Assembly: GCA_040752695.1 (NCBI GenBank)
Contig: JBFMGO010000008.1
Location: forward strand, 26,184-90,183
Reading direction: 5' to 3'
Length of the DNA stretch: 64,000 nucleotides
Source: a bacterium
GTDB taxonomy: Bacteria; SZUA-182; DTGQ01
The translations under genes were made by a program, and so were the position numbers. Of the stretch, positions 3,712 to 64,000 are shown piece after piece. The stretch's first letter is position 1, and each line of letters opens with the position of its first letter. The notes under the pieces are model-generated. The model had not been told where the DNA came from. It made no database searches and saw only the letters and a program-made list of their open reading frames with translations.

Positions 3712-4839
3712 TTAATGTTTCCAGAGTTTCCTTAGAATTGAAAGTGAGCCTTTGATGTTTTTCTTTTCAGGGACATCCAGGGATTCTTTCTCCTCCGGTT
3801 TCTCTTTTTGATCTGCGGAGATTGAACGCTCATCGATGGGCTCTTGTATTTCTGCCAGACGGCCATCACCGAGAAAGCGAAATACAGGGCCCCGGGGACT
3901 GAGAGCCAATTCATCGCCGGGATTGAGAGGTGACTTGAGGTTGATGGTCTTTCGATTGACGGCAACTGATTTTTGTCCTGTGAGATCCTTGACCCAGTAA
4001 TGATCCTGGTTATAGAAAACCTGGACATGGTGACTATGGATGCCGGGATAGTCAAGCTGAAAATCGCCTTCCTTTCCAATAGTGACCGGTACCTCTTTGA
4101 AGGAACGAAGAGTAGGACCATACTGGATAATCAGAGGGACTCTCATGCTATGCACGGCGATCTCATCTATCTCGCCTGGTTCGGGTTGGATTGGACCGGA
4201 TTTTTGACCGGAAAGGTCAGGCTCTTGACTGGAAAGGCCAGGCTCCTGACACGAAAGGCCGGGCTCTTGACCGCAAATGCCGGGCTCCTGACTGAAAGAA
4301 ACGGGTGTATGTCCGGAAAGGTCAAGATCCCGAGGTGAAGAAGGTTTTAGCTTATCTTCCCCATAGGGCGAAGGTGGAAATGACGATGGCGGGGCGCATG
4401 ATGGCTGAGTGGCCGGGAACACGTTTTCCTGCCCCGGTTGACTTTCGCGTAACGGCTGATTTTCGAGTGCCGGTTGATTATCCAGTACCGGCTGATTTTC
4501 GGACACCGGCTGGTTTTCGAGTATCTGGGTCAGGAAGCTAACCTTGGGCCCGCCTTCTGAAAAGGACAATACATCTCCGCTTTTCAGATAAGCCTCTTTC
4601 ATCCTCTTACCATTGACGAAGGTGCCGTTGGTGCTGAGATCAATCAATTTAAAGCGATTTCCTTCGCGAATGATTTCAGCATGATTACGTGAAACTACGG
4701 TCAGGTCGGCAGGGAATCTCAGCAGGCTCGATGGATTGCGACCGATAGAGATGCTGCCCGCGGAAAACTCCTGAATTGTGCCTTTGAAAGGCCCCTGAAT
4801 ATGGACAAGTTGGATGACAATAACTGGCTGTTGCTTCAT
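3712..4839 (-). CDS. Double FHA-domain protein
   Basis: N-terminal FHA with GR...SRNH...STNGTFVNG, a repeat-rich linker (ENQPV, QEPGLS), and a second degenerate FHA (IGK...HSHH...VKDL). Confidence 0.9.
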   Translation of the reverse strand: MKQQPVIVIQLVHIQGPFKGTIQEFSAGSISIGRNPSSLLRFPADLTVVSRNHAEIIREGNRFKLIDLSTNGTFVNGKRMKEAYLKSGDVLSFSEGGPKVSFLTQILENQPVSENQPVLDNQPALENQPLRESQPGQENVFPATQPSCAPPSSFPPSPYGEDKLKPSSPRDLDLSGHTPVSFSQEPGICGQEPGLSCQEPGLSSQEPDLSGQKSGPIQPEPGEIDEIAVHSMRVPLIIQYGPTLRSFKEVPVTIGKEGDFQLDYPGIHSHHVQVFYNQDHYWVKDLTGQKSVAVNRKTINLKSPLNPGDELALSPRGPVFRFLGDGRLAEIQEPIDERSISADQKEKPEEKESLDVPEKKNIKGSLSILRKLWKH

Positions 4840-5081
4840 ATGGGTTTCGTCACAGTCTTTGCTGTCAGTCGAAGGCTCGGTTCATTTTTCAATTATAGCC
4901 CGAGCCTGATGGTTTTTGCAACAACAATGATAAAAAAATAATTATTTATAACACATTATCCAATATCATAAAATAGATTGACTTTTATTCTTTCTCGTGA
5001 GAAGATCAAATGTTATTATCCGTATTGGAACAAGTACCTAACTTTTATGCTCCTGGTTAATGCATACCGGTTGCATACGCG

Positions 5082-5816
5082 ATGCCTATGATAGCCTCTT
5101 TTGGACAATCAGATCCCGGCCTCATACGTCCTCATAATGAAGACAGCTTCGTAATCGTGCCAGAGGCAGATCTTCTTGCAGTGGCCGATGGAATGGGCGG
5201 GGCTGCGGCCGGGGAGGTGGCCAGCCGGATCTTCATCGAAACAGCTTCGATGCGTTCCTCCGGTTCCAGGTGTCAATCTGGGTGTCAATCTGAACAGGAA
5301 ACCCTTTTGAGGGATATCTTTCGATCAGCCAATGAAAATATCCTTAACCATACCAGGGCTAATCCTCACTGCCGGGGAATGGGATGTACGGCTGAACTTA
5401 TCATCTTCACCGGCCAGGGTTACATTCTGGGCCATGTAGGAGACAGCCGTACTTACCTGCTGAGGGCAGGACACCTGAAACAACTGACCCGGGACCACTC
5501 TTTAGTGCAGGATCAGCTAGACCAGGGTCTCATCAAACCTGATGAGGTCAGGAAGCATCCTTTCAAACATGTTATCCTCAGGGCCGTGGGTATCGAAGAA
5601 CGGCTGGCCCTCGATGTGGTAAGGGGCAAGACTTTACCAGGGGACCTTTTTCTCCTGTGCACTGACGGCCTGACGGATATGATCGACGATTCCCTTATCA
5701 AGGAAATACTTTTGCTTCCCCTGACTCTGGCCCAAAAAGGAAACAAGCTCATCGAGTCCGCCAAAGCAGCCGGAGGGCGTGACAACATAACCGTGGTTCT
5801 CGGTGAAATAACGTGA
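5082..5816 (+). CDS. PP2C-type (Stp1/PppA) Ser/Thr phosphatase
   Basis: RPHNED, VADGMGG, HVGDSR, LCTDGL and GGRDN motifs. Confidence 0.95.
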   Translation: MPMIASFGQSDPGLIRPHNEDSFVIVPEADLLAVADGMGGAAAGEVASRIFIETASMRSSGSRCQSGCQSEQETLLRDIFRSANENILNHTRANPHCRGMGCTAELIIFTGQGYILGHVGDSRTYLLRAGHLKQLTRDHSLVQDQLDQGLIKPDEVRKHPFKHVILRAVGIEERLALDVVRGKTLPGDLFLLCTDGLTDMIDDSLIKEILLLPLTLAQKGNKLIESAKAAGGRDNITVVLGEIT

Positions 5817-5893
5817 TTGACAGTGATATAACATGACTGGCTGGCAAGGTCTGGCTGGCAAGTAACCTGATTGGCAGGGTGATGTGATTTTCA

Positions 5894-44492: not shown

Positions 44493-47400
44493 TTAATCCA
44501 AAGCCAGTTCCAGGGGGAGCCGGACCCGGCCATGATTCTTGTTTTCATAGAGGAGGTAGCCATGATCGAGGATATGGTCAAAAAGGCGGGCCGTAAGTTC
44601 GACGTCCATCCGGCAGTAGCGCTCGATTTCTTCGATTTTTCCCTCTTTCCACCACCGTAAGGCGGCCAGGCCGTTACCGCACTTTGAAGTGCCGAACGTG
44701 GCCGAGACAATGGCCTCCAGACTGAGGCGAAAACCATAGCGCCTGTAGATTTCCTCAAGAAGGTCAATGCTTGGCAAGTTACCGAGATTACGGCCTGTAT
44801 AGGCCTTCAGTACTGCGTAGTCAAAGCACTTCTGGTTAAAGCCGACGACCAGTTCAGCCACTGCCATCCGCTGTAAAAGGTCCTTGACCCTGTCCTCCCG
44901 GTAGGTCTGATAGCGGCCGGTGCTGCGCTCATAAACGACGCCGACGGAGAGGCGCATCAGGTGTGCATTGTGCCAGCCGCCCACCTCCTGTGCCGAGAGC
45001 TGTGTTTCAAGATCAAAAACAATAACGTCGCGGCCTTCGGCCAGATGCAGCCTGCTCTGATAGGGAGCTAAAGGACCGGCGGTTCCGCTGCTGTCAGGGC
45101 CGCCGGAAATTCCAGCTTTTTCCCCCTCCCCTGCCCTGCCTGCCAGGCCAGTGGTCGGGGCGGGAGCAGCAAGCGAGCCATCAGCGGCAAATGGCCCGGA
45201 TGAGGCAGATGCGCCGCCACCTGTTCCGGCGCTCACCAGCTTGCCTGATAATTCCTTCTTGCCGGTCAGATGCTGAAGCAGGCGAAGGCATCCCTCCTTG
45301 TCAAGGGGTGTGTTCCCATTTCCGCACTTAGGCGAATGGATGCAGGACGGACACCCCTCCTGGCAGGTGCATCCTTCGACCATGGCCAGCACTTTGGTGA
45401 AAAGCTCATCCAGCACCTGATAGGCCCTGGCTGAAAGACCGACACCGCCGGGGTGGCCGTCGTAGAGAAACACCGCTGCACCGCACGTCTTTGGATGGCT
45501 GGTAAAGCTGATCCCGCCCACATCGGTTCGGTCGCAGAGGGCAAAGAGAGGCAAAAGGGCCAGGCAGGCATGTTCGATAGCGTGCAAGGAGCCCATCAGA
45601 TGATACTTTTCATCGGTAAGACCTGCCACGCTCAAAGCGGATGGCTGGAGCCAGAGGCCGACAGTCTCGAATATCACCGGCGGCAGGTCAAGCGTGTGCT
45701 CACTGATCTTCTGCCGGTTTGAGACCGAGCGCTTTTCATACCCGATCACCCACTCGGTGACCTTAAGCCTTCCCAGGCTGACTGAAAAGCGTTTGTTTTC
45801 CCGGCGGTCCAGGACCTCGAGAATTTCGGTCTCTTTCTGCGTGCGGGCCATGGTGTAGTAACCGACCTCCCCTGCCCTCGCTGCCACAATGTCCCTGCTG
45901 CCAACGTCGAGGGATACGACGCGGTACATCTGGCCTGCATGCAGGTAGATTGCACCAGGGTGAGCTTCGGTGAGTGCCTGAAGCCCGCTGACCCTGCCGA
46001 TGAGCCTGCGGCTTTCCTCCTCCATGATGGCATAGCTTGCACCCGCACCCCGGATATCCACCTCATGGTGGGGCCGCTTGCGGTTGCTGAACCATACCGC
46101 CCCATCGGCAGCCTCGATCAGTTCCCTGCTCCCGGTCAGTTCCCTGATGACCGCCTTAAGGGCATCCATCTGATAAACCTGATCATCGGGCCGAAGCGGC
46201 ACTTCCTGGGCCGCACAAACCAGATGACTCTTCAAAAGATAGGGATTGACGGCATCGACCACTCCTGCCTCCGCTCCCCGCTGGAAGAAATCCTGCGGGT
46301 AGCGCATGAAATACTGATCGAGTGCATCCGGCTGGGCAATCAGAAATATGGCGGATTCGCGGGCCAGTCTCCCGACGCGGCCAGCCCGCTGCCAGGTGGC
46401 GGTTATCGTGCCGGGGTAGCCGACCAGGATACAGATGTCGAGCCCGCCGATATCGATGCCCATCTCAAGAGCGCTGGTGGAAATCACGCCATCCAGAATA
46501 CCGGACTGGAGCTTGTGCTCGATTTCCCGGCGCTCCGCAGGCAGATATCCTGAGCGGTAAGCGCTGATTTTGCCCGACAGGTCTGGATTGGACAAAAGGG
46601 TCCAGCGGTGGATCAGTTCGGTAATTTTTCGCGCCTTGGTGAAGAGAATGGTCTTCTGGCCTGCCTTGACCGCTTCGGTAAATAGATGCGTGGCCACGGT
46701 GTAAAGGCTTCTGGCCGTGGGGTTGACCAGGAAAATGCGGCGGCCGGACGAGGGCGCGCCATTTTCCTCCACCAGGTCAAAGGGCAGCCCGGTCAGTTGC
46801 TCGGCCAACTCACGGGGATTGGCTATGGTGGCCGAGGTAGCCAGAAACTGCGGCCTGGCCTGGTAAAAGAGGGCCACCCGCCGCAACCTTCGCAGGATCT
46901 GAAGCACATGACTGCCAAAGACACCTTTGTAGGCGTGCAGCTCATCGATAACCACGAAACGAAGGTACCTGAACAGGTTCTCCCAGTTGGCATGAAAAGG
47001 TAAAATGCCCTGGTGCAGCATATCCGGGTTGGTCAGGAGCAGATTGGGAGGGTTCTTTCTGATTCTGGTGCGAAAATAGGGAGTGGTATCACCGTCATAA
47101 ATGGCAACCGCTGACTGAGGCAGCCCAAGGCAGGCGGCAAGGTCACGGAGGCGCTTGAGCTGGTCCTGGGCCAGTGCCTTGAGAGGGAAAAGCAAAAGGG
47201 CACGGGTATCGGGCTCATAGAGAATCCGCTCCAGTATGGGCAGGGTATATCCCAGTGTCTTGCCGCTGGCCGTAGGAGTGACCGTGACCACGTGGAGCCC
47301 CTGCCTGGCGCGGTGAATCCCTTCGGCCTGGTGCAGATACAGGCTCCCTGCCCCGTGTGCAATGAGCGCTTGCTGCAGCGGCCCTGGCAGCGGCGGATCG

Positions 47401-47528
47401 ATCCGGCCGAAGCGGGCGCATCTGCCTGCCAGTACCTCGCAGTGAACAATATCCTGCGCCATACGGCTATCACGTAAGGTGTCGGAGAGAAAATCCTTAA
47501 GGTCCAAGACGATTTCCAAACAGCACAA
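44493..47528 (-). CDS. DEAH helicase with DUF1998 (MrfA/YprA/Hrq1-like) fused to an RNase H-like exonuclease (MrfB/YprB-like)
   Basis: TPTASGKT, DELH, SAT, QRAGRVGR; HAIEH..C..., CTCQEGCPSC; C-terminal FDLETQ..GFN...FD...YCRMDV. Start uncertain. Confidence 0.9.
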   Translation of the reverse strand: MCCLEIVLDLKDFLSDTLRDSRMAQDIVHCEVLAGRCARFGRIDPPLPGPLQQALIAHGAGSLYLHQAEGIHRARQGLHVVTVTPTASGKTLGYTLPILERILYEPDTRALLLFPLKALAQDQLKRLRDLAACLGLPQSAVAIYDGDTTPYFRTRIRKNPPNLLLTNPDMLHQGILPFHANWENLFRYLRFVVIDELHAYKGVFGSHVLQILRRLRRVALFYQARPQFLATSATIANPRELAEQLTGLPFDLVEENGAPSSGRRIFLVNPTARSLYTVATHLFTEAVKAGQKTILFTKARKITELIHRWTLLSNPDLSGKISAYRSGYLPAERREIEHKLQSGILDGVISTSALEMGIDIGGLDICILVGYPGTITATWQRAGRVGRLARESAIFLIAQPDALDQYFMRYPQDFFQRGAEAGVVDAVNPYLLKSHLVCAAQEVPLRPDDQVYQMDALKAVIRELTGSRELIEAADGAVWFSNRKRPHHEVDIRGAGASYAIMEEESRRLIGRVSGLQALTEAHPGAIYLHAGQMYRVVSLDVGSRDIVAARAGEVGYYTMARTQKETEILEVLDRRENKRFSVSLGRLKVTEWVIGYEKRSVSNRQKISEHTLDLPPVIFETVGLWLQPSALSVAGLTDEKYHLMGSLHAIEHACLALLPLFALCDRTDVGGISFTSHPKTCGAAVFLYDGHPGGVGLSARAYQVLDELFTKVLAMVEGCTCQEGCPSCIHSPKCGNGNTPLDKEGCLRLLQHLTGKKELSGKLVSAGTGGGASASSGPFAADGSLAAPAPTTGLAGRAGEGEKAGISGGPDSSGTAGPLAPYQSRLHLAEGRDVIVFDLETQLSAQEVGGWHNAHLMRLSVGVVYERSTGRYQTYREDRVKDLLQRMAVAELVVGFNQKCFDYAVLKAYTGRNLGNLPSIDLLEEIYRRYGFRLSLEAIVSATFGTSKCGNGLAALRWWKEGKIEEIERYCRMDVELTARLFDHILDHGYLLYENKNHGRVRLPLELALD

Positions 47529-52692: not shown

Positions 52693-53250
52693 TTAAAACT
52701 CTTCAAACACCTTTTTCAGATTCACTTTCAGGCCGGGAAAAAGAGGGGATGTCAATTCCCCTTCCTCTTCCTGAACGACTTTGAACAGGGTCAGTCCGGT
52801 TTTATCCTTTCGAAAGACCTCGATTTGATTGATGGCCGGATCAATCACCCAATATTCCTCCACTCCAAACTTGCCATAGGTCTTCATTTTTATAAGCCGG
52901 TCCAGTTTCCGTGAAGATTCCGACATAATTTCGATGAGCAAATCCGGAGCGCCCTGAATATTCTGAGTCGTAATAATTCCATAATTTTTTTTGGAAATAA
53001 ACAGGATATCAGGTTGGACAATATTTTCGTAGGATAAGATCACATCCATCGGGGCATTATATATCTTTCCCAGATCATGTTTTTCAACGTATTGGTTAAG
53101 GATGAATCCAAGATTTCTGGAAATACTCTGGTGCCGGACATTCGGAGATGGGGCCATGTAGTGCTCTCCCTCAATAATTTCATGCCGCTTCCCATCTTCA
53201 GGGAACAAAAGATAATCATCATAATTCAATCTTAAGCTCTTGGGTAACAT
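52693..53250 (-). CDS. Uma2 (DUF820) family endonuclease
   Basis: RHEIIEG..PSP..HQ, QPDI, APDLLIEI.S, K..Y...GV.EYWVIDP. Confidence 0.93.
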   Translation of the reverse strand: MLPKSLRLNYDDYLLFPEDGKRHEIIEGEHYMAPSPNVRHQSISRNLGFILNQYVEKHDLGKIYNAPMDVILSYENIVQPDILFISKKNYGIITTQNIQGAPDLLIEIMSESSRKLDRLIKMKTYGKFGVEEYWVIDPAINQIEVFRKDKTGLTLFKVVQEEEGELTSPLFPGLKVNLKKVFEEF

Positions 53251-59425: not shown

Positions 59426-59639
59426 ATGCAGCCGATGCTCCTTTACCAGAATCCCAATAGGTACACCGCTTGCCGAGTCCCTGATAGTTTTTATCAGGGA
59501 CTTTACCAGGGAGTAAGGTCAATTTTGAGAAAAATCTACCTCCTTTCTTCTTTTCGATCATCTTATATTTCCCCTTCCCTGCTTTCTTTTTTTTTCTTCC
59601 ATCATCAGATCACTTTCATCTTCAAAAACCTGCATAGCG

Positions 59640-60718
59640 ATTTGTACCATCCCTGCTTTTTTTTATCGATCCACTGTTTGATACGTTCTGCATTTTGATC
59701 GCCTGTCAACTTCTTTACCCCTTCTACGAAGTGACGAAGCCTTTGACCGACTTCAAACACAGGAATCAGGGCCAGCTTCGGGACTTGAGAGAATATCCTA
59801 TAAAATTGTCCCGCTAGGAATTGCCTGGTATGGGTAGCAGTTTGCTGGAGCTTACTTGGGACCTTTTTGGTAGCATGCATAAGGCAATTTCCCAGTTTGA
59901 TTTTTGGAAAAATAGTCAGCAGGCTCTTTCGAGTGCTCTCAAAACCGTCTGTAAGAGCAGCTTTGGATTCATAGCCAGGGGCAATCTCTTCGGCTTGCTG
60001 CTTAAAAATGCCATAGGAACGGGCAAAATCACTGGCATTCTTGGTCTGGGTATAGCCCATATGCCAGATAACCCGCCCCACCACTATGGTTGGAAGATAT
60101 ACCTTACTGGTCAGGCAATAGCTGTGTTTTTCGTCTGCCACAAAGTAAGCAGGTAGTTTTATCCCACACTTGGCTAAAGGAAGCACTATCCCCCCTTTGC
60201 CCAAGGCACAGACTAAGCGGAAGATGCACATGACAGACACCGCAAAGAGCAGATGGCAATTCTCCAAACTCAATCCTCCATGTGTTGCCAGTAAGGCTTT
60301 CTTTGCCACCTCCGGTGGTAGGCTTGAATAGCGAAGCACAAAGTGAGGAAGCACAGTAAAGACCGCTCCACACTCCATGCACTGAACCCGCCTTATCACC
60401 ACGTTGTTTAGCCGTACCCGATGATAATGAGAATGCCTTGCCAATCCCTTCTCCTCACAGCATCCTTGTTTATGACGCAGATGCAATCCCGCAAATACAA
60501 TAAAGGTAACAATACATTCGATAAACTTCTTTCCATCCTGGCACACATGCTCATACAGGCTCTCTGTTTGAAAATCAACTACATATGGTACGGTTCTGAT
60601 TCCTCCTCCGCTTCTTTTCTCCCATGACCATGTCCCCCCTTTACTAATTCCTTCGATGGAGGATAGCTCATGCCTCAATCTAACGCCAGAAAAAAAACTT
60701 ACCACAAAATCCGGGGGA
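59640..60718 (-). pseudogene. Truncated and frameshifted DDE transposase (IS relic)
   Basis: QCMECGAVFTVLP zinc ribbon, ADEK and TDG acidic motifs, NCLMH. The RBS-preceded ATG at 60631 (MVMGEKKRRRNQNRTIC) is out of frame with the body, and the ORF appears to break after GWYK. Confidence 0.65.
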
Positions 60719-60942
60719 ATCTGGTGTATCCGGATCATTTCGAACTGGTGGATGTCAAGGCCAGAGGCGAAGTGCAGGAGAAAATCAGTAAAAAGACCGG
60801 GCGGAAATACAAGACGCAGTGGAGCAGCAAATGGGACGATGCGGCCGTAAAGATTAAGTGCGCGACGGAACGCTTCCCCTATTTGCGCTGGGCGTATTAC
60901 TTCCGGGAGGCTGACGGACGCTGGACTCGGGAGGATGTATAA
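60719..60942 (+). pseudogene. C-terminal fragment of a DUF1064-like phage PD-(D/E)xK protein
   Basis: ELVDVK...WDDAAVKIKCATERFP resembles DUF1064 (EVKG..DDARVKIK.A...P); the N-terminus is apparently replaced by the IS relic. Confidence 0.45.
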
Positions 60943-61031
60943 AGGTAATCGAAGAAAACGTTAAAATAGAATTATTTTTTAACTTTAGTTAGAAGTTAGT
61001 CAGACGTTTTCATCTTTGTGGAAGGATAGTA

Positions 61032-61084
61032 AAAACGAACGTTTATTTTTGTGGTGTGGTTAGAAGAAATATAATTTCTTCTAA
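61032..61084. repeat. 53-bp direct repeat, copy 1 (res/operator-like, TTAGAAGAAA-N5-TTTCTTCTAA)
   Basis: 42/53 identical to 63355-63407, same length, perfect 10-bp palindromic arms. Confidence 0.85.
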
Positions 61085-61299
61085 TTGGCATCTTATTGCG
61101 GTTCATAATTCAAATATTGAGGTTACCTTGCTTGGAAATAGTAAGAAAGTCCTTTTGGTATAACTATCGGCTACTGTCCCCGACAGCAAAGGATATGCCA
61201 ATTATCCTTGCAATAATGTTTGAACTTATTGAACATTAAGCATAAAGCCCATTACATTCTTTGCTGTCGATCGCTATAGTTAAGGAAGGGGTTCGCATT

Positions 61300-61926
61300 T
61301 CACTTACAGATCAATGATGAACCTCTCCCAATATATTCCCATATGCTGTGGTCGAGGTAAGCGCGTGGAATCCTCATTATATCTGCAGTCGAATTAATAA
61401 TTGACTTAGCCTCATGGTAATCAGATGTCTCGATACCAGCCTTTTTCAGGAAATCAAAGAGACGACGGTCTATTGCGCAAGTCTGAATTCCCGTCAGAAT
61501 CTTAAAGTAGTCAATGGTCTTAGGGCCAATTCCTTGTATCGTATCGAGTTTCATCAAGTTCCTGTCGTTCATCAACCAGTTTTTCAGGTCCTCCTCGGAG
61601 TCAATTCCTTCCGAAGAAAAAAGGTTGACAATATCTTGAAAGCGTTTCGCGCGATCCATTCCTCTCCAATTCAAGAAGTCATTAACTGTTTGCTCTGACA
61701 ACAACTTCCTTAGTCCTGTAATGGTCGCTGCTTTAGGAAAAATGTTCCTTATTCGAGTTACGCGGGGACGTACATGGGTTTCATAGTGCATATTGGCCTG
61801 CAAGACAGCATCTGCAATAGTTGCACCTATGTGTTGATAGTTTCCACCAATTTCATCAACGACAGTAAAGTCTGTCAAGCACCGGATAAACACTGCCAAC
61901 TTAGATGCCTTATCCTCTATTGCCAT
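61300..61926 (-). CDS. Helix-hairpin-helix (HhH-GPD glycosylase-like) protein
   Basis: LDTIQGIGPKTIDYF HhH motif followed by AIDRR (catalytic Asp position); LDHSIW; AAGGAG RBS. Confidence 0.75.
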   Translation of the reverse strand: MAIEDKASKLAVFIRCLTDFTVVDEIGGNYQHIGATIADAVLQANMHYETHVRPRVTRIRNIFPKAATITGLRKLLSEQTVNDFLNWRGMDRAKRFQDIVNLFSSEGIDSEEDLKNWLMNDRNLMKLDTIQGIGPKTIDYFKILTGIQTCAIDRRLFDFLKKAGIETSDYHEAKSIINSTADIMRIPRAYLDHSIWEYIGRGSSLICK

Positions 61927-61975
61927 GCCTTATCTCCTTTAAATATTAGAAAGAAAAAAAAGTATGAATACCACG

Positions 61976-62533
61976 CTATAATGATAGTTGTACTTGTTTT
62001 GGACTTGATATCTCTTTAATAACATTAGAATAAGCAATTTTTTTATCGATCTTAGCTAAACTATCATGCGCGCATAAGGACAAAATTTTTTGTAAATCTT
62101 CTGTGCTAGAAATAGTATAAAAATCTTTTTTAGGAGAAAAGTAAATCAACAGTTCTTTATTTTTCTTTATTAAATTCAAAATGTTATTTAAAGTCCCTGC
62201 GCTCTTTCCATCCCAAAGCATAAATCCATAATCGGCATCTACTGCCATTCTATCATCTTTGACCATATAAAACTTCAGACCATGTGCGCCAACAGGTGTC
62301 TCTACTTTGGTAGTTTTCCAACTGCCAAGATTATTTCTACATGTTTCTCCTGAACAATAAACCACTAACGAATTATATTTGTTTTCTAAAAAATATTTTT
62401 GAACAGCTTTATCTGCACCATTAGCATCCCCTATTAAGACATCGAACCCTTGTTTAACTATGTTATGTAACCTTTTTCGTATTTTATCATTTAGTCTATT
62501 TATATTTCTTGAACCACCAATAAAAACTTTCAT
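61976..62533 (-). CDS. SLOG/DprA-like (YspA-like) nucleotide-binding protein
   Basis: MKVFIGGSR, GDANGAD, KD..M..DADYG...WDGKSAGT. Confidence 0.75.
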   Translation of the reverse strand: MKVFIGGSRNINRLNDKIRKRLHNIVKQGFDVLIGDANGADKAVQKYFLENKYNSLVVYCSGETCRNNLGSWKTTKVETPVGAHGLKFYMVKDDRMAVDADYGFMLWDGKSAGTLNNILNLIKKNKELLIYFSPKKDFYTISSTEDLQKILSLCAHDSLAKIDKKIAYSNVIKEISSPKQVQLSL

Positions 62534-63112
62534 TTAGCATCGGCTCCTCGTTTTAGTTAGGGCTATAACATAGACGTTTTTGACCCTTGCTTTGTTGTAT
62601 AAAATTGATGTTATTACCTTCAGCGTCGTACCAGACCTATAAAGATCATCTATAACTAATACATTCATTCCAGAAAAGTTATAATTTTTGTTGATCTCAA
62701 ATGCATCAGCTAAAATTCGCTCTCTTTCAGATAGATCTTCTATTTCTTTCAACTGGGGAGTCGATTTGGTTTTTAATATGGCGTCTTGAAAGAACGGCAC
62801 TCTGGTTTCCTTGCTTAATTCATGACCCACCACAAATACAGGCTGCAATTGCCGGTTGATATTTGATGGCGGGACAGGAATGATGCAACCCGCCTTTTGT
62901 ATTCCTTTAATTTCCAGTATGTAATTAATAATATCCGGAATAACCGTCAAGTCAGATCGATACTTCAGCCTATATACAAGCTCGCCAATTTTAGTACGAG
63001 TGGTATCGAAACGATCTCTACCTGTTTCATCAACTCCGAGATATTCACTACTTTGAGTGTGTAGATCTAAGGCGTATCCTTTTTTCCAGTTACCGTGAAT
63101 TTCAATTGCCAC
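62534..63112 (-). CDS. ComF-like phosphoribosyltransferase
   Basis: IIPVPPS, PRPP-binding VLVIDDLYRSGTTL, GELVYRLKY; likely GTG start at 63112; stop abuts the next ATG. Confidence 0.85.
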   Translation of the reverse strand: MAIEIHGNWKKGYALDLHTQSSEYLGVDETGRDRFDTTRTKIGELVYRLKYRSDLTVIPDIINYILEIKGIQKAGCIIPVPPSNINRQLQPVFVVGHELSKETRVPFFQDAILKTKSTPQLKEIEDLSERERILADAFEINKNYNFSGMNVLVIDDLYRSGTTLKVITSILYNKARVKNVYVIALTKTRSRC

Positions 63113-63354
63113 CGCATCTTCCTCATCTATACGGTATTTAAGACCTGGGATATTATAATTTAACCTTTTCCAATAGAGGTAAAGGCACAACTTTCGCCTG
63201 CTCTTAATATTAACCCGATCTTAATCAGTAGTCAAAATATATATTAAAAATTCATTGTAAAGTACATTGAAAGGCAAAAATTGTATTATTATCTATTATA
63301 GTAAATCCGCATGAATATTCGTGATATCCTCCTTTCATGAGGTGCAATTCGAAG

Positions 63355-63407
63355 AAAACGATCGTTTATTTTTACGTTAGGATTAGAAGAAAAGGACTTT
63401 CTTCTAA
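63355..63407. repeat. 53-bp direct repeat, copy 2
   Basis: See copy 1. Confidence 0.85.
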
Positions 63408-63549
63408 CCAGGATATTCATAAACCTCGCCAAAAGTAAGATTTATAACATTATTTCAAGATGTTAGGCCTAAGCCACTTTAAAACAAAGTCTTTTCCGTG
63501 ATCGCAATAATCACAAGGCATGTAGGGACTTTATGAATAATCCGGGCTA
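63405..63549. mobile_element. MITE-like element (~145 bp) with imperfect terminal inverted repeats
   Basis: Left TAACCAGGA-TATTCATAAA versus right reverse complement TAGCCCGGATTATTCATAAA; both ends are TA. Confidence 0.5.
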
Positions 63550-63719
63550 AAAATGTGCAATTTTACCCATCTTGGATCGGGCATGCACTCTTGAACGTGC
63601 AGAGCCTTTGGACGGAGATTTCGGCAATGGCGGATGAGTTCTAGGCTCACTCACATCTCGGCGAGCCATCACCTGATGCGCGGCACAGCCGTTGACAATC
63701 CGCCGGATGCCACAACTCA

Positions 63720-64000
63720 TCACCGCGTCATCAGCGCGAACACACCCCAGCCCAGGTATTCACGCGTGTACGCGGCGTAGCGCTCGGGTTCCGAGGTCAG
63801 TTCGGCTCGAACATCTTTCGCTAACTCGTCGTCGGGATTGGCTTCAAGCCATCGGCGCATGGTGAGCCATTTGGCCGCCTCGTATCTGTCCCAGCCGTCT
63901 TGGTCTGCCAAAACCATTTCCACGACGTCGTAGTCAAGGTGGCCGAAAGACGCGAGAAGTTCTGGAAGCGTGAGAAAGTCGGAGATTGAGCCGGCACCAC
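63720..64000 (-). CDS. YjhP-like class I SAM methyltransferase (C-terminal part; runs off window)
   Basis: Frame is open to the window edge (…SISDFLTLPELLASF.HLDYDVVEMVLADQDGWDRYEAAKWLTMRRWL…GWGVFAL), matching the YjhP C-terminus. Confidence 0.8.
   Translation of the reverse strand, partial: GAGSISDFLTLPELLASFGHLDYDVVEMVLADQDGWDRYEAAKWLTMRRWLEANPDDELAKDVRAELTSEPERYAAYTREYLGWGVFALMTR

Follow-up and report, generated by a model that had tools for sequence, protein, structure and literature searches.

A mobile PRTase–SLOG gene pair, resembling ShosTA and PsyrTA, beside an HhH-GPD gene

ShosTA is a toxin–antitoxin system of E. coli that acts against phage (PMC11961720, PMC12961424). Both ShosTA and PsyrTA are described as a phosphoribosyltransferase (PRTase) toxin with a DprA-like antitoxin that defend against phage. 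The ShosT double substitution D331A/D332A, equivalent to the Asp-Asp of the PRPP loop, is described as losing toxicity (PMC11961720), and the two proteins are reported to be a non-binding (type IV-like) pair. ComF-like PRTases are also associated with defence as the effectors of type III-A retrons and as OpnC of Ophion, and these are said to form one clade (10.1101/2025.09.30.679545). A SLOG branch of the YpsA family paired with a PRTase appears in a comparative-genomic note of Brzozowski et al. 2019 (PMC6459960), citing Burroughs et al. 2015. A literature search found no experiment on the PRTase–SLOG family described here.

The gene pair resembles ShosTA in its order, with a PRTase-domain protein, the proposed toxin, encoded ahead of a SLOG-superfamily (DprA-like) partner, in the conserved Asp-Asp of the PRPP loop, and in being mobile and accessory. 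However, ShosT is described as 424 aa with an N-terminal hydrolase/pyrophosphatase domain (residues 1-164; PMC11961720), whereas the PRTase here has 192 aa and lacks this domain. ShosA, as described, contains a SAM domain and an extended DprA Rossmann domain (structure residues 1-313); the SLOG protein here has 185 aa and neither of them. Because the SAM domain and the extended sheet are missing, ShosA-style neutralisation dependent on ssDNA and RecA may not apply. PsyrTA/RqlHI is likewise described as a PRTase-containing toxin with a DprA-like antitoxin, and PsyrT is the best PADLOC match of our PRTase, but only the last ~160 of the 689 profile positions match and the remainder has no counterpart in the 192-aa protein. 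PsyrT carries a helicase in this unmatched part. The PRTases of type III-A retrons and Ophion have other partners, in the one case a reverse transcriptase and an ncRNA, in the other an rSAM enzyme and a PHP protein, and no SLOG partner. The YpsA-family branch (PMC6459960) is compared by description only, and may or may not equal the SLOG family here.

Layout and setting of the locus

The locus consists of three genes between two copies of a repeat:

63355..63407, no strand assigned: dispersed 53-nt repeat with an internal hairpin, copy upstream of the cassette
62534..63112, minus strand: PRTase gene, GTG start, 192 aa; proposed toxin/effector
61976..62533, minus strand: SLOG gene, 185 aa; proposed antitoxin/neutraliser
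61300..61926, minus strand: HhH-GPD gene, 208 aa; a neighbour outside the module
61032..61084, no strand assigned: dispersed 53-nt repeat, copy downstream of the cassette, matched over 88 nt by the copy on contig C12

The original prediction of three co-oriented AT-rich genes is borne out. All three are on the minus strand, and their GC contents of 38.3% (PRTase), 30.3% (SLOG) and 42.6% (HhH), a range of 30–43%, compare with 49.8% for the window (the whole stretch of 64,000 nucleotides that was analysed) and 48.1% for the genome. The motifs it quoted (VIDDLYRSGTT, GGSR, GDANGAD and WDGKSAGT) are all present in the translations. The longest ORF of the PRTase gene spans 62534-63190; the GTG at 63112 is the likely start, because the resulting product of 192 aa agrees in length with nearly all homologues and with P0121, the database copy of this protein. 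The TAA stop of the PRTase gene abuts the ATG of the SLOG gene with a spacing of 0 nt, and the HhH gene follows 49 nt downstream of the SLOG gene. In a scan of 60900-63650, promoter-like sites (9, with 8.4 expected) and terminator-like sites (3, with 2.1 expected) are about as numerous as by chance.

The flanking direct repeat is real; the two copies are 79% identical and each contains a 10-bp hairpin. Since further copies lie on five other contigs of the same genome (C12, C37, C162, C134 and C140), the repeat is not confined to this cassette, and we rejected it as a unique boundary. That the region is a decayed mobile one is weakly backed by a 377-aa ORF at 59605-60738, whose matches to DUF6431 and to MULE transposase are both sub-threshold. 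The end of the window is also the end of the contig, so the island is visible from one side only.

Conservation, mobility and decay of the pair

The PRTase is a single-domain, ComF-like type I enzyme, and Pfam shows the PRTase domain only (PF00156, 21.1 bits, below the cut-off of 26.3). Its 313 homologues are mostly 192 aa long. In the PRPP loop VIDDLYRSGTT, residues D155, D156, S160, G161 and T163 are invariant. The protein also keeps PPSNxxR, in the PPi-loop region, and, towards its N-terminus, the motif GNWxKGxAxDxHT, which is specific to the family. PADLOC matches are to PsyrT (1.5e-15, profile positions 527-686 of 689) and ShosT (1.4e-10, 39.5 bits), with weak matches to the PRTase_III-A models (0.01-0.02). 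A search of PDB sequences with the PRTase profile gives weak matches to the PRTase domains of HPRT and PurF, and the ShosT chain is absent at E<=0.01.

The SLOG protein has a Rossmannoid core (residues 1-141) of SLOG type with Gly-rich nucleotide-binding loops, followed by three C-terminal helices. The highly conserved polar residues of the family's pocket lie in GGSR, GDANGADK, CRNNxGxW, KD and WDGKSxGT..N. ShosA is the best Foldseek match of the model and the fold resembles ShosA, DprA and YpsA, but a fold match alone cannot assign the protein to a SLOG clade. No PADLOC model matches it at E<=0.1, including those of ShosA and PsyrA, so that the earlier label of an undescribed variant is a fair one; the family has no model of its own in Pfam or PADLOC 2.0. 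Across the whole genome, the ShosA model PDLC03961 matches only the canonical dprA on contig C41, and the PsyrA model PDLC03927 also matches only the canonical dprA. Matches to Pfam families all stay below their cut-offs: PF02481 scores 13.4 bits with our protein (cut-off 29.6) and matches 18 of 32 family members, 0 above cut-off; YAcAr (PF10686) matches 5 of 32 (best E 4.1e-4) and YpsA (PF06908) 1 of 32 (E 0.18). The family is net basic (median pI 9.4), which is compatible with nucleic-acid binding and not diagnostic of it. The many invariant polar residues point to an enzyme or to a pocket for a small molecule more than to a protein that binds DNA in general. A complex prediction for the two proteins scores 0.01 against a mark of 0.32, and a score below the mark says nothing either way on binding.

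The pairing is conserved across many phyla. By tblastn the PRTase is found in 71 of 80 SLOG-seeded loci; in 68 of these it shares the strand of the SLOG gene and ends at most 60 nt ahead of it, and 66 have at least 80% of its length covered. Four of the nine loci without a PRTase have less than 300 nt of upstream DNA. Of the 62 loci in which both genes are called as ORFs, 53 show a 4-nt overlap between the end of the PRTase gene and the beginning of the SLOG gene. As for a third partner, any other gene family occurs in at most 6 of the 80 loci. The family comprises 523 confirmed loci in one-genome-per-species contigs and 2362 clusters at 50% identity, and the closest copy of the pair (P0001, 90%; P0122, 86%) is on a 36,416-nt contig. 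Taking the PRTase and the SLOG protein as a real unit thus holds up, on the 71 paired loci, the matches to PsyrT and ShosT and the ShosA/DprA/YpsA-like fold.

A full-length SLOG gene is present in 1 of 100 relatives and in 0 of 2 genomes of the same genus. Carriers include conjugative plasmids of enterobacteria and rhizobia, and individual plasmids show varied surroundings:

Methylorubrum pMPPM04: the pair adjoins a resolvase and parAB
Listeria pLI100: the pair directly follows rep
Acinetobacter 13.6-kb plasmid: carries the pair
E. coli IncFII plasmid: the pair adjoins a type II RM system and another restriction endonuclease

Homologues occur in 101 plasmid records for SLOG and 66 for the PRTase. 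We rejected an 'orphan antitoxin' reading of this asymmetry because the extra SLOG records (Mesorhizobium, Planktothrix and others) belong to a more distant subfamily, which matches residues 3-114 only and stands in other contexts, for example beside a DUF2493 gene. Of 5426 complete E. coli genomes, 8 carry the pair; in strain NCTC11121 it sits in a P2-like prophage, with tail genes on one side and ogr on the other. Viral collections rarely hold the pair, with 0 of 50,697 phage records and four candidate IMG/VR loci, and a viral origin was rejected. Among the nearest neighbours, 16 of 150 ORFs, in 15 of 53 loci, match PADLOC models at <=1e-10, a raw, uncontrolled count. Two of the 16 look spurious (IscS-like, TPR). 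Many neighbours are housekeeping genes (glmS, gyrA, ispDF, rpsF). On this distribution, the pair is a self-contained, horizontally mobile two-gene module that is patchy among relatives.

Several SLOG proteins are fused to domains of antitoxin type. The Agrobacterium protein has a C-terminal PF21716 'probable addiction module antidote' HTH (74.5 bits), and that of Methylorubrum has HTH_37 (68.4 bits). Among 30 long members scanned, PF21716/HTH_37 is found in 6, YhfG in 1 and Abi_alpha in 1, and one is a natural PRTase-SLOG fusion (hhalign 99.9%). The family is also fused to NADAR and DUF4326 domains. Decay affects the PRTase first, as seen on two Agrobacterium plasmids. In A. vitis pAtS4c the PRTase gene is frameshifted, and in pRvVAR0630b an IS481 element deletes its first ~86 codons; in both, the SLOG-HTH gene is intact. 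Since the other loci were seeded on SLOG, an intact SLOG gene beside a broken PRTase is partly expected there by construction, and these two plasmid cases alone are free of this bias.

Proposed activity of the pair

The pair is probably a minimal ShosTA/PsyrTA-like module of a PRTase toxin and a SLOG neutraliser; we give this reading a probability of about 0.6. It has the generic features of a toxin–antitoxin system (adjacent genes, mobility, patchy occurrence, fusion to antitoxin HTH domains and toxin-first decay), as judged from the genes alone, and from them we infer toxicity, neutralisation, a trigger and any anti-phage effect. The single-domain PRTase would use PRPP and make or deplete a nucleotide metabolite, and the altered metabolite would poison the cell or the infecting phage. 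The co-translated SLOG protein would keep the PRTase harmless in normal cells. When its supply or function fails, through plasmid loss, shut-off by a phage or the presence of phage DNA, the PRTase would act, and the freed enzyme would lead to growth arrest or abortive infection. Demonstrable defence against phage by the pair is a more tentative expectation, to which we give somewhat less than even odds.

A more specific and rather improbable form of this proposal makes the SLOG protein an enzymatic antitoxin that reverses the product of the toxin, following DarT/DarG-like logic with phosphoribose. It is prompted by the conserved polar pocket, by the NADAR, DUF4326 and PRTase fusions, and by the lack of ShosA/DprA-specific domains. 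The PRTase would attach PRPP-derived phosphoribose to a base that is free or part of a cofactor, or possibly to one within nucleic acid; the SLOG protein, being related to the LOG N-glycosidases, would bind the adduct and take it off again, and the cell would survive until infection or plasmid loss upset the balance.

The main alternative to a toxin–neutraliser module is a cooperative pair for nucleotide processing or signalling, in which an unusual nucleotide made by the PRTase is either processed further by the SLOG protein (as a LOG-like N-glycosidase/transferase) or sensed by it. We consider it unlikely. The fusions of SLOG with the PRTase and with NADAR or DUF4326 are as compatible with a nucleotide pathway of two steps as with a toxin–antitoxin pair. 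The LOG motif PGGxGTxxE holds the catalytic Glu; however, in a by-eye alignment to this motif, the Glu position is an invariant Asn in the SLOG family. In addition, no effector gene is conserved beside the pair, and the repeated antitoxin-type HTH fusions, the rep and par neighbours on plasmids and the PRTase-only decay suit addiction or a toxin–antitoxin pair better. A cooperative pair of this kind echoes the view of SLOG domains as parts of 'nucleotide-centric conflict systems'.

The HhH-GPD neighbour, the competence genes and significance

The third gene encodes a protein with the HhH-Gly/Pro loop GIGPKT ... AID, invariant K136 and D153, and an invariant C-terminal DHSIW. Lys136 and Asp153 align with the catalytic Lys and Asp of Ogg2/EndoIII-type glycosylase/lyases, and the C-terminal ~80 residues, and only these, match the Ogg2-type 8-oxoG glycosylase/AP lyase 9o00 (E 3.2e-4). 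The model (pLDDT 92.5) has MagIII, Ogg2, MutY and EndoIII as its top folds, and the best 50 Foldseek matches listed are all HhH-GPD glycosylases. The motif, the loop, the downstream Asp and the two-domain helical fold of the HhH-GPD superfamily are all present, and no Pfam or NCBIfam model scores above its cut-off. The protein shares the two-domain all-helical fold with Ogg2, MagIII and EndoIII (TM 0.62-0.66 to MagIII), but it belongs to a distinct family set apart by the DHSIW motif. It is thus a solitary HhH-GPD, DNA glycosylase-like protein of putative activity.

The original prediction had added this gene to the pair as a third component, with the PRTase possibly modifying bases or nucleotides for the other two to sense or excise, and had made recurrence of the trio in other genomes a test of the idea. 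In the window, the three genes are indeed co-oriented and AT-rich, with the close spacing and the enclosing repeats given above. However, the HhH gene is absent from 80 of 80 SLOG-seeded loci, and both the PRTase and the SLOG gene are absent from 80 of 80 HhH-seeded loci, by tblastn and profile HMMs. None of 99 HhH homologues is on a contig of a length recorded for PRTase or SLOG homologues, the 36,416 nt of the closest copy of the pair included, and the gene is found in 0 of 100 relatives. Its homologues have variable neighbourhoods of their own, and its GC content of 42.6% is unlike the 30–38% of the pair. A role for the glycosylase is unsupported because the gene never co-occurs with the pair elsewhere; the comparison speaks so strongly against a three-gene system, in which the HhH protein would excise or sense the modified base together with the SLOG protein, that we regard it as highly improbable. 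The HhH gene is, judging from its distribution, an independent accessory gene and a chance neighbour in the same AT-rich island.

It is equally improbable that the two genes are housekeeping or competence paralogues (ComF and DprA-like) for DNA uptake. RefSeq calls homologues 'ComF family protein' and there are weak matches to TIGR00201 comF (41.4 bits, cut-off 233.55) and TIGR00732 dprA (13.7 bits, cut-off 191.15), but both scores are far under the cut-offs. The canonical dprA of the genome (253.7 bits) is on contig C41, as is a gene that matches comF better (107.1 bits), so that the pair is outside the core competence loci, a location that the original prediction had named as counting against it. 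The pair occurs in variable contexts on plasmids and in a prophage, and among 100 relatives only 1 has it.

ShosTA and PsyrTA are proven anti-phage systems, and the chemistry of PRTase toxins is only partly understood. The PRTase–SLOG family reduces the theme of PRTase toxin and DprA antitoxin to two small single-domain proteins, and the glycosylase is removed from the system as a false lead. If the pair proves toxic and protective, it would represent a defence or addiction family missed by current annotation pipelines, and would offer a compact system of ~380 residues for the products of PRTase toxins and their neutralisation by SLOG proteins.

Layout of the locus and its dispersed repeat

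The window comprises the final 64 kb of contig C8 of the source genome (6.05 Mb in 239 contigs). The three genes are close to its right end, and a direct repeat flanks them.

61300-63190, minus strand: three ORFs
62534-63112, minus strand: PRTase gene, favoured form with GTG start; the longest form runs to 63190 (TTG start, 218 aa)
61976-62533, minus strand: SLOG gene, 185 aa
61300-61926, minus strand: HhH gene, 208 aa
61032-61084 and 63355-63407: 53-nt direct repeat, copies 79% identical, internal 10-bp hairpin
C12:72628-72715, C37:6151-6208, C134:4984-5009, C162:7674-7730, C140:11730-11762: repeat copies on other contigs of this genome

The GTG at 63112 has a GAGGA motif just before it and gives a PRTase of 192 aa. 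It fits as the probable start, since nearly all 313 PRTase homologues, together with P0121, the database copy of the window protein, have this size; the original prediction had used the same coordinate. The ATG of the SLOG gene directly follows the PRTase stop codon TAA, while the HhH gene starts 49 nt beyond the SLOG gene and is preceded by its own AAGGAG. The GC content is 38.3% for the PRTase, 30.3% for the SLOG and 42.6% for the HhH gene, against 48.1% for the genome. ORF calls, GC values and repeat comparison thus bear out the early description of three co-oriented AT-rich genes between direct repeats of 53 nt.

The repeat consists of an AAACGAxCGTTT-like palindromic box followed by the 10-bp hairpin and spans 53-88 nt. 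It is not an element special to the three-gene cassette, because further copies are found on five other contigs: BLAST within the same genome gives a copy of 88 nt with 91% identity on C12, and more on C37, C162, C134 and C140. Several copies sit at the border between AT-rich accessory DNA (33-40% GC) and DNA of normal composition (48-57% GC). Their cargo varies (WD40 protein, sigma-70 factor, LuxR, DUF6345, unknowns), and the C162 copy adjoins a serine-recombinase gene at the contig end. The repeat may mark where AT-rich islands insert or recombine, or may have a regulatory or terminator role in them. Past the upstream repeat, the GC content returns to 57-59% (63547-64000), and a 92-aa ORF there, open-ended and without a Pfam match, is cut off by the contig end; the far border of the island is beyond view because the contig stops at the window end. 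Adjoining the island, a 377-aa ORF (59605-60738, minus strand) has only sub-threshold matches, to DUF6431 and MULE-transposase, and may be a transposase that has degenerated or diverged. A few kb away are a 1011-aa DEAD/Helicase_C protein with MrfA Zn-binding, WHD_HRQ1 and C-terminal RNase_H_2-like domains (44493-47528, minus strand) and a Uma2-family putative restriction endonuclease (52693-53250, minus strand).

The PRTase-SLOG pair

Pairing and coupling of the two genes are established by the best 80 of 523 confirmed SLOG loci, drawn from one-genome-per-species contigs. The PRTase is detected in 71 of the 80 (tblastn at 1e-5), with at least 80% of its length covered in 66 of these and a partial match in five, including one that lies at a contig end. 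In 68 of the 71 it ends no more than 60 nt upstream of SLOG on the same strand, and a 4-nt overlap of stop and start is seen in 53 of the 62 loci with both genes called. Four of the nine misses (L026, L046, L057 and L066) have less than 300 nt of upstream DNA; the other five (L015, L027, L037, L070 and L075) contain no PRTase detectable by tblastn or profile HMMs. After all-against-all clustering of 1330 called ORFs, every other family is confined to at most 6 of these 80 loci. In L037, from an Acidobacteria MAG, a RecD-like SF1 helicase gene (4174-5826; AAA_30, UvrD_C_2, SH3_13) immediately precedes the SLOG gene, loosely reminiscent of the long toxin and SLOG-type partner of PsyrTA.

Among 100 relatives, a full-length SLOG match is present in one (G010, from the same taxonomic order, 49% identity) and absent from the two same-genus and three other same-family genomes searched; 84 of the 101 genomes surveyed are at least 90% complete, and absence means not found in those searched. 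The canonical dprA (253.7 bits, over cut-off) and a comF match of 107.1 bits, above that of the pair's PRTase, lie elsewhere, on contig C41. The pair is therefore not competence machinery, and the core competence location that the original prediction regarded as incompatible with a defence role does not apply.

The PRTase scores 21.1 bits with Pfam PF00156, slightly under the cut-off of 26.3, and 41.4 bits with NCBIfam comF (cut-off 233.55). Among PADLOC defence models it matches ShosT at 1.4e-10 and PsyrT at 1.5e-15, the latter restricted to profile positions 527-686 of 689. Searched against PDB sequences, its profile picks up nothing beyond generic PRTase domains of type I (HPRT, PurF). Conservation of the catalytic motif is established by an alignment of 30 family members, in which D155, D156, R159, S160, G161 and T163 of the PRPP loop are invariant or nearly so, as are a PPSxxR loop and the N-terminal GNWxKGxAxDxHT.

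The SLOG protein has no PADLOC match and only sub-threshold matches to DprA family models. Among 32 family members, DprA is matched by 18, YAcAr by 5 and YpsA by 1, all under cut-offs. The AlphaFold model (pLDDT 94.3) establishes the predicted fold as SLOG, because Foldseek returns ShosA (8zva, E 1.5e-4), then DprA, TRPM SLOG domains, ThsA-SLOG, LOG and YpsA; such a match does not assign a clade. The family has 30 invariant columns, many of them polar (R21, D36, D41, Q45, R66, N67, N68, K92, D93, D108, S111 and N117). By our own comparison with the LOG motif PGGxGTxxE, the position of the catalytic Glu is occupied here by the invariant Asn N117. The family is basic (median pI 9.4), a charge compatible with nucleic-acid binding. 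A distant SLOG subfamily, matched only over residues 3-114 and with no PRTase, occurs on a Planktothrix 5.3-kb plasmid (L193) and a Mesorhizobium huakuii plasmid (L194), in the latter adjoining DUF2493 (YAcAr SLOG), toprim-domain and DUF736 genes and parA.

The HhH neighbour

The HhH protein matches no curated family model over its cut-off. Its family profile matches Ogg2-type 8-oxoguanine glycosylase/AP lyases (9o00, E 3.2e-4), with K136 and D153 aligned to their catalytic Lys and Asp. The model (pLDDT 92.5) resembles MagIII (TM 0.62-0.66), Ogg2, MutY, EndoIII and Mag2. The protein is HhH-GPD glycosylase-like and belongs to a family of its own, marked by an invariant DHSIW motif at the C-terminus. 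We found 99 homologues and no match to the HhH query in the 100 relatives.

The original prediction had made this protein a component of the system, a view to be abandoned if it never co-occurs with the pair elsewhere. By tblastn at 1e-5, no SLOG locus among the 80 carries the HhH gene, and none of 80 HhH loci (the top-ranked 80 of 450 confirmed metagenome loci) carries a PRTase or SLOG gene; searching the called ORFs with profile HMMs confirms both negative results. Therefore the glycosylase is not part of the system, and the pair stands alone. The closest pair copy among the matches listed (90% and 86% identity) is on a single 36,416-nt contig, and none of the listed HhH homologues is on a contig of that length. 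In the all-against-all clustering (1330 called ORFs), other families each reach at most 4 of these 80 loci. The 87 ORFs flanking these loci include NERD (2), TIR-type (2), HNH, HD, DUF499, HsdM_N, ParE, BrnA, IS200-type transposases (3) and housekeeping genes; neighbours are variable and many are unknown. The HhH-GPD glycosylase-like gene is a solitary accessory gene.

Mobility, proposed partner roles and relation to known systems

The neighbours of the pair change from locus to locus. They include housekeeping genes (glmS, gyrA, ispDF, rpsF, radA-like), toxin-antitoxin genes (HipA with HTH, PIN, Fic), restriction-related genes (RAMA/HsdR_N, ResIII-PLD-DUF3427, HNH), transposases, an integrase and a caspase. 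PADLOC models match 16 of 150 nearest-neighbour ORFs at 1e-10, in 15 of 53 loci, among them type IV REase, SoFic, capP/capH and PDC candidates; two matches look spurious, and as a raw count this is only suggestive of a defence-like neighbourhood.

Mobility is established by plasmid and prophage copies. SLOG homologues occur on 101 of 72,556 plasmid records (55 conjugative) and PRTase homologues on 66. On an E. coli IncFII plasmid, recombinase genes flank the pair, which adjoins a type II restriction endonuclease, a cytosine methyltransferase and a second restriction endonuclease. The allele is present in 8 of 5426 complete E. coli genomes, seven times on the chromosome; in NCTC11121 the pair sits in a P2-like prophage, with the tail genes on one side and ogr on the other, and adjoins a Hok/Gef gene. 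It directly follows rep on Listeria innocua pLI100, adjoins a resolvase and parAB on Methylorubrum pMPPM04, and is carried by a 13.6-kb Acinetobacter plasmid. IMG/VR contains four loci, and the phage records searched gave no match.

Analogy, fusions and decay all suggest that the PRTase does the harm and that the SLOG protein neutralises or regulates it. Both ShosTA and PsyrTA have a PRTase protein as toxin and a DprA-like protein as antitoxin. ShosT toxicity depends on the PRPP-loop Asp pair (D331A/D332A; PMC11961720). Antitoxin-type fusions are established for the SLOG protein: the Agrobacterium plasmid form (288 aa) carries at its C-terminus the domain PF21716 ('probable addiction module antidote protein', 74.5 bits) and the Methylorubrum form bears HTH_37 (68.4 bits). 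At E<=0.001 an exhaustive profile search recovered 2362 representatives, of which 430 reach E<=1e-30. Thirty long forms chosen from the top 150 include PF21716 in three (one under cut-off), HTH_37 in three, and single cases of HEPN_AbiU2 (under cut-off) and, among proteins P0398, P0372, P0371, P0340 and P0455, of Abi_alpha, NADAR, DUF4326 (just under cut-off), YhfG and an N-terminal PRTase; 17 have an extension without a Pfam match at E<=0.001 and one more has an irrelevant weak match. YhfG is the Fic antitoxin. The fused PRTase belongs to the same family as that of the window (hhalign 99.9%, E 9e-32). Toxin-first decay is established on two Agrobacterium vitis plasmids with an intact SLOG-HTH gene: in pAtS4c the PRTase is split across two frames, and in pRvVAR0630b an IS481 replaces its first ~86 codons. 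A VapC module adjoins both loci.

The PRTase would use PRPP and make or deplete a nucleotide metabolite with toxic effect, which the SLOG protein would counter; plasmid loss or phage infection could cause SLOG supply or function to fail and so release the toxin. ShosA is reported to act via ssDNA binding and RecA with no direct ShosT binding. This mechanism may not carry over, because the SLOG protein has none of ShosA's additional domains and is recognised by neither the ShosA nor the PsyrA model. The invariant polar pocket and the NADAR, DUF4326 and PRTase fusions would suit a ligand-binding or product-reversing enzyme, which we consider improbable; the Asn at the LOG Glu position (N117) is a caveat to this reading.

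Known PRTase and DprA-like toxin-antitoxin or defence pairs include ShosTA, PsyrTA/RqlHI and a system from P2 hotspots named 'DprA-PRTase'. The present pair differs from ShosTA and PsyrTA in architecture and antitoxin models. PMC6459960 mentions a YpsA-family branch that forms a gene pair with a PRTase and may be this family. Searches of main texts turned up no experiments on a single-domain PRTase paired with a SLOG protein of ~185 aa. What stands of the original prediction, minus its glycosylase, is the pair as a candidate undescribed variant of PRTase/SLOG toxin-antitoxin defence systems, judged from sequence. The PRTase/DprA-like theme is already established; the PRTase-SLOG family is compact and widely distributed, escapes annotation and lends itself to direct tests.
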